Source: a virus | Length of the DNA stretch: 64,000 bases | Virus record (IMG/VR): IMGVR_UViG_3300032236_001503 | Span: 99,238-163,237 of that record | Direction: 5' to 3' (one strand) | Part shown: positions 29,400 to 37,670 of the stretch, in pieces | Layout of the letters: the number at the start of each line of letters is the position of its first letter | Position numbering within the stretch: the first letter of the stretch is position 1 | The notes under the pieces: generated by a model | What the model was told of the DNA's origin: nothing | The model's input: the letters and a program-made list of their open reading frames with translations, nothing else | The model's database searches: none | Position numbers and translations under genes: made by a program

Positions 29400-30027
29400 T
29401 GTTGCGATTAATCCACAAATCTAATTGTGATAATTTATTTCCAAATTTTCTAAAAAATTTACCAATAGCAAACCAAAAAAATCTCCAATAACCGAATGTA
29501 GATACTCTTAAAGCTTTTCTGATTCTAGTAGAAAGTTTTGCTTCTTCTTCAGCAAGTCTCCTTTCCCATTCATCATTATTTTTTTTTATGTCATTTGCGG
29601 TTTGAGAAAGACGAATTACAACTTTCTTTAGTTTTCCTTGTAGTTTTCCATTTACAAACTTACCGGAAAACTCAACCCACCATTCATTACCCTCCGTATC
29701 AAAAACGCCATCATAAAAACAAATATCACCAGTATGCTTATAGATTTTAGTCTTTCTGGATTTTTCAACAAATTTATGGGGCCAACAAAAATTTCCTCTT
29801 TTTCTGATTTTATCCTCTTCCTTCTTTGTCATGGTGCGAACCCAATCACCATCAACTATTGTTGTGGCAAGAGTTCCATTTTTCCTAATAGTATAAGTTG
29901 ATAGTGTGCAATCCAAATCCTTAGATTGAAAAACTTGTTCATCCCAATTTACATTGGAAAACTTTACCTTATCTTTCTTATTAAGAGGAAGAGGCATTTG
30001 GCATTTAATTGAATCGAACATTCCCAA
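29392..30027 (-). CDS. Conserved phage hypothetical protein (MGMFD..C...FQSKDL family)
   Basis: TTG start preceded by AAGGAGG; typical N-terminus. Confidence 0.65.
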   Translation of the reverse strand: MGMFDSIKCQMPLPLNKKDKVKFSNVNWDEQVFQSKDLDCTLSTYTIRKNGTLATTIVDGDWVRTMTKKEEDKIRKRGNFCWPHKFVEKSRKTKIYKHTGDICFYDGVFDTEGNEWWVEFSGKFVNGKLQGKLKKVVIRLSQTANDIKKNNDEWERRLAEEEAKLSTRIRKALRVSTFGYWRFFWFAIGKFFRKFGNKLSQLDLWINRNIA

Positions 30028-30074
30028 AATTACCTCCTTGTCCCATTTGGGACTGTTTGATTGTAAGTATTATT

Positions 30075-30710
30075 ATGAATCATATTTATATATTATACCG
30101 AATCATAAATAAAGTCAACAATAAATTTTATATTGGTGTTCACAAAACAAAAGATATTAATGATGATTATTATGGTTCTGGACATTCAATTAAAGCAGCA
30201 ATCGAAAAATATGGCAAGGAAAATTTTACAAAAGAAATTCTTCATATTTTTACAAATGCAAAAAAAGCATTTAAGAAAGAAAAAGAAATAGTTAATGAAG
30301 AATTAATTAAAAATAAAAATTGTTATAATCTTAAAGAAGGTGGTCATGGTGGATTTGATCATATAAGAAAAACTGGTTTACATAAATCTTCTAAAGGTAG
30401 AAAAATAATACATAAAGATGATCAACAAACGAAAGTTAAACCCGAAGATTTAGAAAAATATTTAAAAGAAGGTTGGAAACTTGGATTTAGACCAAGTGCA
30501 TTGAAACGTATGTCAGAATCAGGAAAAATAAAAATTCAATCGGAAGAACAAAAAAGAAAAAATTCAGAAACCAAAAAAGGTTGTATCAGAATGTTAAATC
30601 CAATTACAAATAAAATGAAATTTGTTAAAAGGGGATTAGTTGATGAATTTTTAAATAAAGGTTGGTCTTTTTATAAATTAAAAAGAAATCAACGGTTATC
30701 CTTCAAGTAA
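30075..30710 (+). CDS. GIY-YIG homing endonuclease (Seg-like)
   Basis: ILYRIIN.VNNKFYIGVH, YYGSG, KYG.ENF.KE, YNL..GG; inserted antisense to its neighbours; TAAGTA upstream. Confidence 0.9.
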   Translation: MNHIYILYRIINKVNNKFYIGVHKTKDINDDYYGSGHSIKAAIEKYGKENFTKEILHIFTNAKKAFKKEKEIVNEELIKNKNCYNLKEGGHGGFDHIRKTGLHKSSKGRKIIHKDDQQTKVKPEDLEKYLKEGWKLGFRPSALKRMSESGKIKIQSEEQKRKNSETKKGCIRMLNPITNKMKFVKRGLVDEFLNKGWSFYKLKRNQRLSFK

Positions 30711-31511: not shown

Positions 31512-31953
31512 TGGTGGACTAGAGGGGAATCGAACCCCTGTCCTTAATATTGTTCACTATCACTTCTACATGTTTAGGTAAATTTAGCATTTGATTGACT
31601 ACAGGCTGCTATGGCTTACCGACCTATCTTTTTTAGTCTGCCTGATATAGTGAAGAGTCTACATCCACCCCCTGCACTTATTTTACGAGTATCGCAGATA
31701 CTACTTCAACCTACTGTTATTCCACTACCCCTAATAGGATCAGGATTGTGGTGTTTATGCAGCCATAAGACAAAGCTCGTCTTCGCATCCGAAGAAAGAC
31801 TCTGCCATATTTGTCACGAATGACTTGACTGATTCAACTGCATTGGTTATTGCCTTTGCGTTTATGTTTCAAACGATTTTTTAAGTAGCCTTTCGTTCAA
31901 CTACTACATGCGTGTATAGATTTCAACGATTAAGTCGAAACCAGTACTAGCCC
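31512..31953 (-). ncRNA. ssrA: tmRNA
   Basis: 5' GGGCTAG pairs with 3' CTAGTCC-ACCA (G3:U), GGTTTCGAC D-region, T-arm GGTTCGATTCC, internal tag frame ending ...LMAA-stop (31755-31859). Confidence 0.95.
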
Positions 31954-35330: not shown

Positions 35331-35696
35331 TTACTTATCTTCAAAAGATATCATTCCAGACTCTATTTCTCTATGACAATTTGCACATACTAAAATACAT
35401 TTTTTTGCTTCTTCTAATGATTTTTTATAATTTCTAGAAAATCCTTTATGAGCTAAACCAAAACTTTTTTCATTTGGAATAATATGATGAAATTCTAAAG
35501 CTCTTATACATTTATCATAATTGCAAATATTACACTTTCCTCCAAATTCACTAATCAATTTAGCTTTAACTAACTGTCTTCTTTTTGTAACGGAATTTGA
35601 TCTACATTTTTTACATCGGTAAGAATTTCTACCTTCTAATACATATTCTGTTTCACCATGATATTTACATGTTTTAATTGTGAATTTTTCTTTCAT
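35331..35696 (-). CDS. HNH endonuclease
   Basis: GGKC..C.Y, ALEFHH, E..KC..VCANCHRE. Confidence 0.9.
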   Translation of the reverse strand: MKEKFTIKTCKYHGETEYVLEGRNSYRCKKCRSNSVTKRRQLVKAKLISEFGGKCNICNYDKCIRALEFHHIIPNEKSFGLAHKGFSRNYKKSLEEAKKCILVCANCHREIESGMISFEDK

Positions 35697-35913: not shown

Positions 35914-36186
35914 TCAACCACCAGCTATGGCTGGGACTATTGAAATTTCATCGGTCTCCTTTACAGAAGTTGCCAAATCAGAAAGAAAGCAAATATCTTC
36001 ATCATTTAGAAAGATATTGATAAATCTACGAACTTCGCTATTCTCATCAAAAATTCTATCGTGGAGTTCTGGGAACCTCGCACACAACATCATAAGAATT
36101 GAACCCATAGTATCACCTTCAACCAAAACAACTTCTTGGTTGTTTGTGATTTTTCTAAGAGGAACTGGAATCCTTATTGTTGCCAT
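35914..36186 (-). CDS. MoaD/ThiS/CysO-family ubiquitin-like sulfur carrier
   Basis: IRIP..LR, FPEL..RI, RRFINIF.N.EDI, C-terminal IVPAIAGG; own TTGCAA...TAAGAT promoter. Confidence 0.93.
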   Translation of the reverse strand: MATIRIPVPLRKITNNQEVVLVEGDTMGSILMMLCARFPELHDRIFDENSEVRRFINIFLNDEDICFLSDLATSVKETDEISIVPAIAGG

Positions 36187-36346: not shown

Positions 36347-36424
36347 TGGAGCGTCAAGTAGGATTTGCACCTACGGCTTTAGAGTTTTGCAGACTCTTCC
36401 TTTGGACTTCTCAGGCATTGACGC
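36347..36424 (-). tRNA. tRNA-Cys(GCA)
   Basis: AGAGT-CTGCAAA-ACTCT, U73, CCA; atypical D and T loops. Confidence 0.88.
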
Positions 36425-36427
36425 ATA

Positions 36428-36515
36428 TGGAGGAAGCGGTGGGATTCGAACCCACGGTACATTTCTGTACTTCAGTTTTCAAGACTGACTCTTTAAACCG
36501 CTCAGACACACTTCC
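36428..36515 (-). tRNA. tRNA-Ser(TGA)
   Basis: TCAGT-CTTGAAA-ACTGA, long variable arm, CCA. Confidence 0.95.
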
Positions 36516-36518
36516 ATT

Positions 36519-36606
36519 TGGAGGAAGCTGTGGGATTCGAACCCACGGAACATTTCTGTTCGGCGGTTTAGTAAACCGCTCTCGTAAACCGCTTGAGTAA
36601 GCTTCC
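36519..36606 (-). tRNA. tRNA-Ser(ACT)
   Basis: GCGGT-TTACTAA-ACCGC, long variable arm, CCA. Confidence 0.92.
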
Positions 36607-36650
36607 GTTATTAATAACTTATCAGAAGCAGAATATTTGTAAAGAAAAAA

Positions 36651-36863
36651 ACGTGGTGTTTGAAGGATTTTGTTGCGCACTTTGTTCCTTCTTCAACGGG
36701 CAAGGCTGCGTGGAACGCTGCCCTATCCGTATAGCTCATGTTGTTCTAATCAGTAACATCATAGCTCCCGTAGCTTCGCTAGTTACCATTCAGAAAGTCA
36801 TCCCAACTTACCAATGAGCAAAGATTCGTTTCCTAGTTAGGTGATTTGCTACCTCCCAACCGT
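36651..36863 (-). ncRNA. Unassigned ~213-nt structured RNA
   Basis: GC-rich multi-hairpin intergenic segment with its own TTTACA-N16-TAAGAT promoter, ending at a T tract upstream of tRNA-Ser. Confidence 0.6.
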
Positions 36864-36912
36864 ATTAATATCTTATCATAGAAAATAGACTTGTAAAGCA
36901 TAAATATTTATA

Positions 36913-37275
36913 GTGAAAGATAACGACGAAAAAAAATTACAAATGATTTACGAGAAACTCTCTCATTCATCCGCTGAAGAGATGAAAGAGGATGATATCG
37001 GTGAACAAGAAAAAAGTGAAGAGATCGTAGATGAAAAACCACATGTGATGTATATTGATGTGGGTAATGATGTTTGGGAAATTGATCTAATGTCTGATGA
37101 TCATAAAAGAGACCCAAATAATCTTTTACATAAAGTTAAAAAATTTCTAATCTATTATAGAAACGATAAAGAAATAAATCACAATTTTTTGCATGGATTA
37201 CTCCATAGTGAAAAGCTTGCGAAATACTTAAAAAAGTTTAATACACACCCAGCAGAGTTTTTAAATCAACTTTAA
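36913..37275 (+). CDS. Late protein carrying the D-x3-L-x2-I-Y N-terminal motif
   Basis: MKDNDEKKLQMIY; TAAATA 6 nt before the GTG start. Confidence 0.65.
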   Translation: MKDNDEKKLQMIYEKLSHSSAEEMKEDDIGEQEKSEEIVDEKPHVMYIDVGNDVWEIDLMSDDHKRDPNNLLHKVKKFLIYYRNDKEINHNFLHGLLHSEKLAKYLKKFNTHPAEFLNQL

Positions 37276-37670
37276 ACCCAATCTGGAAATTTTTCTCTAT
37301 TTGGTCTATATTCTAATCTATAGTCTATAGTTAACTCTTCGTTTTCCTGAATATATCTAGCAGCCTTTATTGTTCCTTGGGGTATAAGCCATTTACAGTT
37401 GGGATTTCTACTATGATTAAAATAATGTATTTTTGAAATTAAATCAGATGTTAAACACCATTCTTCGTCACATGGTATCAACCAATTATGATTTATCTGG
37501 TATTCGGTTAAATCATTCCATCTTAATTTATAAAACGTCCTAAACCAAGGAACATAATTTAAAATTATCTCGCCTTCGGAAAATGGTATTTTTGAAAATA
37601 TACCTTTTCCAGCAATAAGAGAATCTGCGATATATGTTAGTGGTGCATTATCAATATCTATGTGGTTCAT
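37272..37670 (-). CDS. SET-domain lysine methyltransferase
   Basis: GKGIFS...GE.I, FNHS.NPN, A.R.I...EELTIDY. Confidence 0.9.
   Translation of the reverse strand: MNHIDIDNAPLTYIADSLIAGKGIFSKIPFSEGEIILNYVPWFRTFYKLRWNDLTEYQINHNWLIPCDEEWCLTSDLISKIHYFNHSRNPNCKWLIPQGTIKAARYIQENEELTIDYRLEYRPNREKFPDWV

Follow-up and report, generated by a model that had tools for sequence, protein, structure and literature searches.

A gene for an RNA of about 210 nucleotides, which almost certainly represents a real and new family of phage structured RNAs, resides in the DNA analysed here (the window), a 64,000-nucleotide stretch of a 163-kb IMG/VR virus record (IMGVR_UViG_3300032236_001503) whose completeness is estimated at 73%. 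The RNA extends from ACGG at its 5′ end to ACACCA at its 3′ end and occupies positions 36654–36863 of the minus strand, which also carries all 18 tRNA genes and the tmRNA gene of the window. Matches to both covariance models described below (R1 and R2) span the full model length. All coordinates given for the RNA refer to the minus strand, and RNA nucleotide n corresponds to window position 36864 − n. The locus had originally been noticed as a GC-rich non-coding island, and positions 36863–36651 indeed have a G+C content of 42–48% against a background of 25–30%. We favour, with moderate confidence, a reading in which this is a stable non-coding RNA that is transcribed together with tRNAs from a sigma-70 promoter, ends in a free ACCA tail, folds into a double pseudoknot and dimerizes through a kissing loop.

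Searches against known RNAs and proteins agree with the original prediction of a phage non-coding RNA outside the known families. When the whole window was compared with Rfam 15 at gathering thresholds, the tRNAs and the tmRNA were the only matches and nothing was reported at the RNA; even at E ≤ 10, the interval 36550–36950 produced no family match, just two chance matches of 11–15 bits. Rfam models also gave no match over the RNA at seven homologous loci. Reading frames are not conserved, and many members have stop codons in all six frames, which leads us to reject a protein-coding function. BLAST searches with the window RNA and the commonest variant returned no match among 50,697 cultured-phage records, a BLAST search of 26 related phage records with the RNA recovered a near-identical copy only, and no description of this RNA family was found in the literature searched. 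A Y RNA or YrlA RNA acting with Ro60 was likewise rejected, given that no Rfam Y RNA model matches and that the TROVE domain (PF05731) is absent from the 73%-complete genome, in which no RtcB gene was found either.

Homologues were collected with covariance models and pattern scans. Two copies that are 96–98% identical to the window RNA (L002/L084 and L003) have both the RNA and its promoter in common with the window. The first model, R1, was made from the three near-identical copies with hairpins predicted by minimum free energy (MFE) from a single sequence, and it recovered two distant relatives with full-length matches, each within a tRNA cluster. Its middle helices proved wrong on comparison, though it had served as a probe. 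Pattern scans of viral and metagenome contigs for the conserved 3′ motif, which consists of CGUUGA, a hairpin with the loop ACAAA-N6-AA-N-AAAA and then AYACCA, added members. The second model, R2, was built from one gap-free subclade with helices read from comparisons, because plain MAFFT alignments misplace the helices. R2 and two further pattern scans brought the collection to 24 distinct sequences from related phage and metagenome contigs, nearly all of which lie beside or between tRNA genes or inside tRNA arrays. A relaxed pattern scan of viral contigs returned mostly chance matches (four of 100 loci were real), and among the matches listed in a scan of genome contigs, none of the 120 sampled combined the P7 hairpin with the upstream motifs.

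Comparison of the 24 homologues reveals strong, strand-specific covariation. In the alignment of these sequences (A9), the nested helices scored (P1, P2, P3, P6, P6a and P7) reach 93.7% paired cells, a value somewhat inflated by the fitting of A9 to the model, whereas column shuffles give 71.0% and strands slid by 1–3 columns give at most 49.6%. The pseudoknots PK1 and PK2 and the palindrome discussed below are unaffected by this fitting. Twenty-seven of the 35 nested pairs change on both sides, none of 500 shuffles reaches the observed values, and an earlier alignment (A8) gives the same picture. Up to five pair types occur per position, which is beyond what a model-fitted alignment explains. 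The MFE of the window sequence (−56.9 kcal/mol) is unexceptional relative to shuffles (−50.8 ± 4.2 kcal/mol, z = −1.45), and thus the structural support comes from the comparison of homologues and not from folding energy. G-U pairs, which would be A-C on the opposite strand, are frequent in the helices and therefore indicate that the constraint acts on RNA made from the minus strand.

All conserved helices can form in the window sequence. P1 joins nucleotides 3–9 (36855–36861) to nucleotides 23–29 (36835–36841), and across the family it is 97% paired, with six of its eight pairs changing on both sides. P2 is short in the window copy, where GGAAA (nucleotides 31–35, 36829–36833) faces UUUCU (nucleotides 68–72, 36792–36796); for the family as a whole it is 95% paired and six of seven pairs change on both sides. 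P3 is formed by GGUAAC (nucleotides 77–82, 36782–36787) and GUUACU (nucleotides 107–112, 36752–36757), and all five modelled pairs change on both sides. The P4 hairpin (36762–36781), in which UAGC (nucleotides 83–86) pairs with GCUA (nucleotides 99–102) and whose loop bears one strand of PK1, is 91% paired; its AGC/GCU core is almost invariant, with a single compensated change to AGU/ACU in L240. P6 (ACGG/CCGU) and the P6a hairpin together span nucleotides 134–168 (36696–36730) and are 97–99% paired, and here one P6 pair (the last) and two of those in P6a covary. Finally, the P7 hairpin (nucleotides 173–202, 36662–36691) carries a 20-nucleotide loop, and each of its six pairs changes on both sides.

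This fold replaces most of the secondary structure that had been drawn from the window sequence. The first and sixth of the hairpins originally proposed, GGTTGGG/CCTAACT and GAAGGA/TCCTTC, correspond to P1 and P7, respectively, and the fifth overlaps P6 and P6a in a different register. The second, third and fourth hairpins are paired in 52–57% of cells in the 24 homologues, and their bases belong to P2, P3, P4, PK1 and PK2. Three other pairings considered during the analysis were also discarded: GGAGCC/GGCUCC shows one-sided changes that are uncompensated, and its GGC belongs to the covarying P6a stem; GUAUGU/ACAUAC is confined to one clade; and the second GUUGGG of the window, as an alternative partner for P1, is not conserved.

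To look beyond nested helices, all column pairs were searched for further stacked covarying runs. The two that emerged, PK1 and PK2, are absent from the model of the alignment and are 86% and 95% paired, respectively, compared with 30–48% for slid strands. PK1 connects the loops of P1 and P4 through GUAGC (nucleotides 12–16, 36848–36852) and GCUAC (nucleotides 90–94, 36770–36774). Its variants include UAGG/CCUA, CAGU/GCUG, UGGC/GCCA and GAUAGC/GCUAUC in addition to the UAGC/GCUA of the window. PK2 joins a strand enclosed by P2, GCUCAU (nucleotides 45–50, 36814–36819), to the segment just before P6, AUGAGC (nucleotides 125–130, 36734–36739), and five of its six pairs change on both sides. Homologues carry GUCUGU/ACAGAC, GCUUGU/ACAAGC, UCCUGC/GCAGGA or UCUUGU/ACAAGA in place of the GCUCAU/AUGAGC of the window. 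Even between the window and its close relative L084, which differ by four substitutions, two of the changes (C48G and G127U) affect the two sides of a single PK2 pair and convert C-G to G-U with pairing kept. A compact double pseudoknot (P1 loop with P4 loop, and P2-enclosed strand with pre-P6 segment) is thus well supported by the pattern of covariation. A different long-range pairing, CTTTG with CAAAG, had been suggested earlier; across the family it is reduced to invariant UU/AA pairs, because its G pairs within PK2 with covariation.

The loop of P7 has an unusual form of variation. Its length is fixed at 20 nucleotides and it reads ACAAA, one base, six variable bases, and then A, Y and AAAA. 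In the window, the variable segment is the palindromic hexamer UGCGCA (nucleotides 185–190, 36674–36679). Nine octamer variants covering this segment occur in the 24 sequences: AUCCGGAA (ten sequences), UUCUAGAA (four), UACUAGUA (three), GUGCGCAA (the window and L084), and UUCCGGAA, UACCGGAA, ACCUAGGA, UUCUAGGA and ACCCGGGA (once each). The perfect palindromes among them comprise six different hexamers (UCCGGA, UCUAGA, ACUAGU, UGCGCA, CCUAGG and CCCGGG), and the imperfect hexamers are one with U-G at the outer position and one with an A-A mismatch. The symmetric pairs at the three inner positions are 96–100% complementary, each with changes on both sides.

Adjacent bases of this kind are unable to pair within one loop, and a second segment complementary to the hexamer was not found within the RNA of any member, so the simplest reading is a duplex between two copies of the RNA. 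Predicted loop–loop duplexes have energies of −6 to −14 kcal/mol. The same argument was made by Kretsch et al. (2025, PMC12286853) for intermolecular kissing loops, in that L9.3 tetranucleotides of OLE and L21a dinucleotides of GOLLD switch between palindromes and thereby supported the symmetric kissing loops seen by cryo-EM. On the strength of this signature we consider it reasonably probable that the palindromic kissing loop of P7 gives rise to homodimers. An unlikely alternative is that the palindrome is a site for a dimeric protein or pairs with some other palindromic RNA or DNA, in which case the RNA might function as a monomeric ribonucleoprotein or an antisense guide. In its favour, the loop variants could co-evolve with such a target, and a palindrome is complementary to every other copy of itself. 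Against it, six unrelated palindromes occupy the same six columns in RNAs that are otherwise similar, which is predicted by Watson–Crick self-pairing and is hard to square with one protein specificity, and the mosaic loci that carry the RNA offer no consistently adjacent gene.

Loop-mediated self-pairing has a well-known counterpart in the dimerization initiation site of HIV-1, where a hairpin loop presents a six-nucleotide palindrome with flanking unpaired A nucleotides, the palindrome is GCGCGC in some lineages and GUGCAC in others, and two RNA copies join through a loop–loop dimer. The P7 loop resembles this site in carrying a hexamer that varies between lineages yet remains self-complementary and that is flanked by A-rich sequence. 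The HIV-1 element differs in that it is a packaging signal of retroviral genomic RNA, and it has no homology to the phage RNA. Retroviruses are also cited as a precedent in PMC12286853.

The 3′ end of the RNA is the second distinctive feature. The tail ACCA (nucleotides 207–210, 36654–36657) begins only 2–4 nucleotides past P7; its ACC is present in all 24 sequences, and the final nucleotide completes ACCA in 21 and ACCU in three. A complementary UGGU (nucleotides 51–54, 36810–36813) resides directly 3′ of the PK2 strand, and its GGU is found in 24 of 24 sequences. Pairing of UGGU with ACCA could extend PK2 coaxially. Because four of the five possible pairs never vary, the fifth (A-U, G-U or G-C) is unpaired in seven of 24 sequences and three members end in ACCU, we put forward this docking as a hypothesis.

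In the window, the terminal ACACCA ends at 36654 and is followed by CG and a run of seven U nucleotides (36645–36651) that occurs only in the clade of the window, L084 and L003. A T tract at this location (36651–36645), about 45 nucleotides ahead of tRNA-Ser(ACT) at 36606–36519, had been noted from the start and is borne out. Homology with L084 and L003 breaks off directly past the U tract, and the module is taken to end there on its 3′ side. The tract lies 10 nucleotides past the last stem and a terminator scan reported nothing there, indicating that it is not a canonical terminator. Further downstream, a tRNA scan identified tRNA-Ser(ACU), tRNA-Ser(UGA) and tRNA-Cys (36347–36606, minus strand), and the arrangement suggests that the RNA and these three tRNAs are probably parts of one transcript.

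Homologues place other elements at the same point. At four loci (L116, L128, L134 and L202), a tRNA starts about 10 nucleotides after the tail. At 10 or more loci (at least 10), a nine-nucleotide strand after the tail pairs with downstream sequence and closes a type-P1 twister-like element, whose P1 strands, AUUUCUUUA and UAAAGAAAU, are visible in the sequence. These elements are sub-threshold matches, scoring 31–37 bits (E values of 1e-4 to 2e-3) against a gathering threshold of 67.2 for RF03160 (L126, L163, L164 and L168). At L126:10510–10579, for example, the P1 strand starts right after ACCAN, and a terminator-like hairpin with a U tract follows the element. No twister-like element is present in the window copy. 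Ribozyme-like elements, tRNAs and terminators thus appear to be interchangeable means of releasing a non-tRNA product from tRNA operons. For theta (HDV-like) ribozymes situated behind phage tRNAs, a role in 3′-trailer processing has been suggested (Kienbeck et al. 2024, PMC10879173), and the twister-like elements occupy the corresponding position at the 3′ end of a phage structured RNA. By this analogy, a short free 3′ end probably matters for the RNA. The theta ribozymes differ in belonging to another ribozyme class, and in the present case the match is sub-threshold, the RNA upstream is something other than a tRNA, and the window lacks the element.

At L162/L171 and L167, the twister-like element follows other non-coding modules in place of the RNA. 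Additional conserved, G+C-rich non-coding modules lie upstream of the RNA or of the twister-like element at L126:10060–10290, L162/L171 and L172. One of these is about 125 nucleotides long and is closed by GACUAG/CUAGUC, and another has the hairpin loop CGCGGGUAA. They are shuffled among loci at a common CAUAnAAAUUAA linker, have no Rfam match and could represent additional small RNAs of phages.

The 5′ end of the RNA, an A at 36863, is preceded by promoter-like hexamers, as had been proposed when the locus was first described (TTTACA-N16-TAAGAT, 36897–36870). The −35-like hexamer TTTACA (36892–36897) and the −10-like hexamer TAAGAT (36870–36875), which has a TG just upstream, end six nucleotides before the RNA on the minus strand. 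The same geometry is present in L084, L087 and L202, and 6–7 nucleotides separate the −10 hexamer from the conserved 5′ A. In L087 and L202 the −35 hexamer is a perfect TTGACA, in the arrangement TTGACA-N17-TATGTT and TTGACA-N17-TAAATT, at equal distance to the RNA 5′ end. In the window clade, the RNA thus appears to be transcribed from its own sigma-70-like promoter. The next gene upstream is on the opposite strand and starts at 36943; the position of the promoter, along with this divergent gene, suggests that the promoter heads a unit containing the RNA, tRNA-Ser(ACU), tRNA-Ser(UGA) and tRNA-Cys. Members of other clades have a tRNA or a different non-coding module on the 5′ side of the RNA, joined to it by an AAAUUAA(U) linker, and there the RNA is presumably cut from a longer precursor.

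We infer expression, the exact ends and dimer formation from sequence comparison, and the following sequence of events is proposed for the favoured reading. The host sigma-70 polymerase would transcribe the RNA from its own promoter together with the three following tRNAs. RNase P cleavage at tRNA-Ser and subsequent 3′ trimming would release the RNA at its 3′ end. The same release would be accomplished in relatives by a tRNA about 10 nucleotides downstream or by a twister-like self-cleaver before a terminator. The short single-stranded tail ending in ACCA may then dock on the invariant UGGU stacked on PK2, and two copies would join via the self-complementary hexamer in the A-rich P7 loop to form a symmetric kissing-loop dimer. 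Our guess is that this dimer forms a particle, of RNA alone or of RNA and protein, that acts in tRNA or translation biology while the phage infects its host; a similar role is suspected for GOLLD and ROOL.

The tail and its surroundings lend themselves to other explanations. The RNA could be a mimic or decoy of tRNA 3′ ends, offering its NCCA tail to tRNA enzymes (CCA-adding enzyme, aminoacyl-tRNA synthetases, 3′ exonucleases or anti-phage tRNA nucleases) that it titrates or by which it is charged. The presence of ACCA in 21 of 24 members, contexts that would all free the tail within a few nucleotides, the location among tRNAs whose genes likewise encode CCA, and the CACCA at the end of T4 rnaD are all compatible with mimicry. 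However, hairpin P1 sequesters the 5′ end, and the 2–4 nucleotides between P7 and the tail leave no acceptor stem, as do the covarying helices in general. ARAGORN and the Rfam models of the tRNA clan, tmRNA and tRNA-like structures give no match, so a tRNA or tRNA-like identity was rejected. In addition, three members end in ACCU, and no gene for a CCA-adding enzyme was found in the 73%-complete genome. We hold the chance of such mimicry to be slight. In the converse arrangement, UGGU on PK2 would be a receptor for an NCCA 3′ end, whether that of the RNA itself or that of a tRNA from phage or host, and the RNA would be a trans-acting binder of tRNA ends or a catalyst; this seems improbable to us. 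Such an RNA might be a T-box-like sensor of charging, or might acylate, trim or join CCA ends as a symmetric dimer. Were this correct, docking would place the 3′-OH beside the 5′ end of the 3′ strand of PK2, an arrangement favourable to chemistry.

The motif UGGN is that by which T-box leaders bind the NCCA end of tRNA, and a cis-acting leader that uses UGGU to sense a ligand or an uncharged tRNA and governs read-through into the tRNAs would fit the position of the window RNA between a promoter and three tRNA genes, as well as its complex fold with many invariant unpaired bases. Yet what follows the RNA differs from locus to locus (tRNA-Ser, another tRNA, a twister-like element with a terminator, or unrelated modules). 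No alternative terminator–antiterminator pairing is visible, the scan reported no terminator, and neither T-box nor riboswitch models match; the UGGN-like motif is the only feature in common with T-box leaders, and identity with them was rejected. We consider a leader function quite improbable. A ribozyme, be it a catalyst of tRNA processing (a reduced form of RNase P, for instance) or an RNA that processes itself, is more improbable still. The pseudoknotted core, the invariant unpaired nucleotides and the location in tRNA arrays would suit one, and the GGU beside a helix recalls the manner in which RNase P L15 and the flexizyme contact the CCA end of tRNA. In opposition to this, the models of RNase P, group I introns and small ribozymes gave no match even at E ≤ 10, and RNase P RNA was rejected as an identity given that hairpin P1 contains the 5′ end and the 3′ end is predicted to be single-stranded, so that the two ends do not form a P1 together. 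A faint resemblance to RNase P CR-I had been pointed out in the original prediction; the stretch concerned is the variable 5′ strand of P2 and is not conserved.

The favoured reading, a dimeric structured RNA with a free tail, finds its closest parallels in GOLLD and ROOL, although the RNA matches neither family by sequence or by model and identity with them was rejected. GOLLD and ROOL are phage- or prophage-encoded structured non-coding RNAs often located near tRNA islands (PMC12286853), much as the RNA described here lies in tRNA arrays, and they also possess multiple pseudoknots and have no known protein partner or function. They form homo-oligomers held together partly by symmetric kissing loops, whereas oligomerization of the present RNA is proposed from its covariation signature. 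They also differ in size, at about 580 to more than 800 nucleotides compared with about 210 nucleotides here, and the predicted free ACCA tail is a feature of the present RNA. With a single self-complementary loop, a dimer is expected rather than a cage.

Among the RNAs of cultured phages, T4 species 1 and 2 RNAs (rnaC and rnaD) are small, stable RNAs that are encoded in the tRNA cluster and reside on the same primary transcript as the tRNAs (PMC2330249). The likeness extends to the phage, in that the tail sheath of the window phage is distantly T4-like. These RNAs differ in their length of 119–139 nucleotides, and rnaC has a tRNA-like T arm that the RNA described here lacks. Identity was rejected, since a search of T4 positions 68500–74500 using R2 with filters off gave no match at rnaC/rnaD (70908–71171). 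The rnaD sequence (L297:2554–2672) ends in GCGCACCA, as does the tail of the phage RNA, and the two are not detectably related.

Self-assembling natural RNAs were long thought to be rare, a view that changed in 2025 with the cryo-EM structures of OLE, ROOL and GOLLD, two of which are phage RNAs encoded near tRNA genes. The RNA described here is much smaller, at about 210 nucleotides, and combines an unrelated fold with very clear covariation and a predicted tRNA-like free end. At this size, it is amenable to crystallography, cryo-EM, mutational scanning and tests of dimer design, and it could serve as a model for the role of self-pairing RNAs in phage tRNA islands.

The window phage encodes a contractile tail sheath that, among cultured phages, is closest to those of T4-type cyanophages (33–37% identity over the C-terminal third). 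The RNA family is probably carried by a lineage of uncultured T4-like myoviruses, with the gene inside their tRNA arrays. Applied to 35 related phage records, R2 gave nine occurrences of the RNA; of three related complete genomes, one has it and two lack it. No second copy was found in the 73%-complete genome of the window phage. Three loci (L132, L166 and L168) hold deletion derivatives that retain only the last 20–90 nucleotides (part of P7 with the ACCA tail, or P6–P7) and are fused to other modules upstream of a twister-like element. These 3′-only derivatives indicate recombination within the RNA gene and, along with the absence from two of the three complete relatives, show that the RNA is dispensable. 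It is an accessory, single-copy element in a mosaic region.

Protein genes are interspersed among the tRNA genes of the window, including a ThiS/MoaD-like gene (35914–36186), a SET-domain gene (37272–37670) and genes for an HNH endonuclease (35331–35696) and a GIY-YIG endonuclease (30009–30710). Across loci, the neighbours of the RNA are drawn from ThiS-like, SET-domain, HNH, PurA and GIY-YIG genes in a set that varies, and they provide no functional clue. A tRNA-Ser with the unusual anticodon ACU recurs in the lineage, usually beside tRNA-Ser(UGA), with copies in the window (36519–36606), L087 (2063–2149), L089 (8753–8842), L126 (14177–14263), L128 (9925–10011) and, just past the RNA, L202. 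The tmRNA of the window (RF00023, 99 bits) lies at 31512–31953 on the same strand as the tRNAs and is also present in the relatives L089, L126 and L167. Group I introns (RF00028) occur in the tRNA and tmRNA region of relatives at L110:1001–1233 and L091:3301–3525 (78–84 bits), and a truncated RF00028 match of 35 bits lies at L164:3907–4013. The start of the L110 intron overlaps the 3′ end of the tmRNA match.
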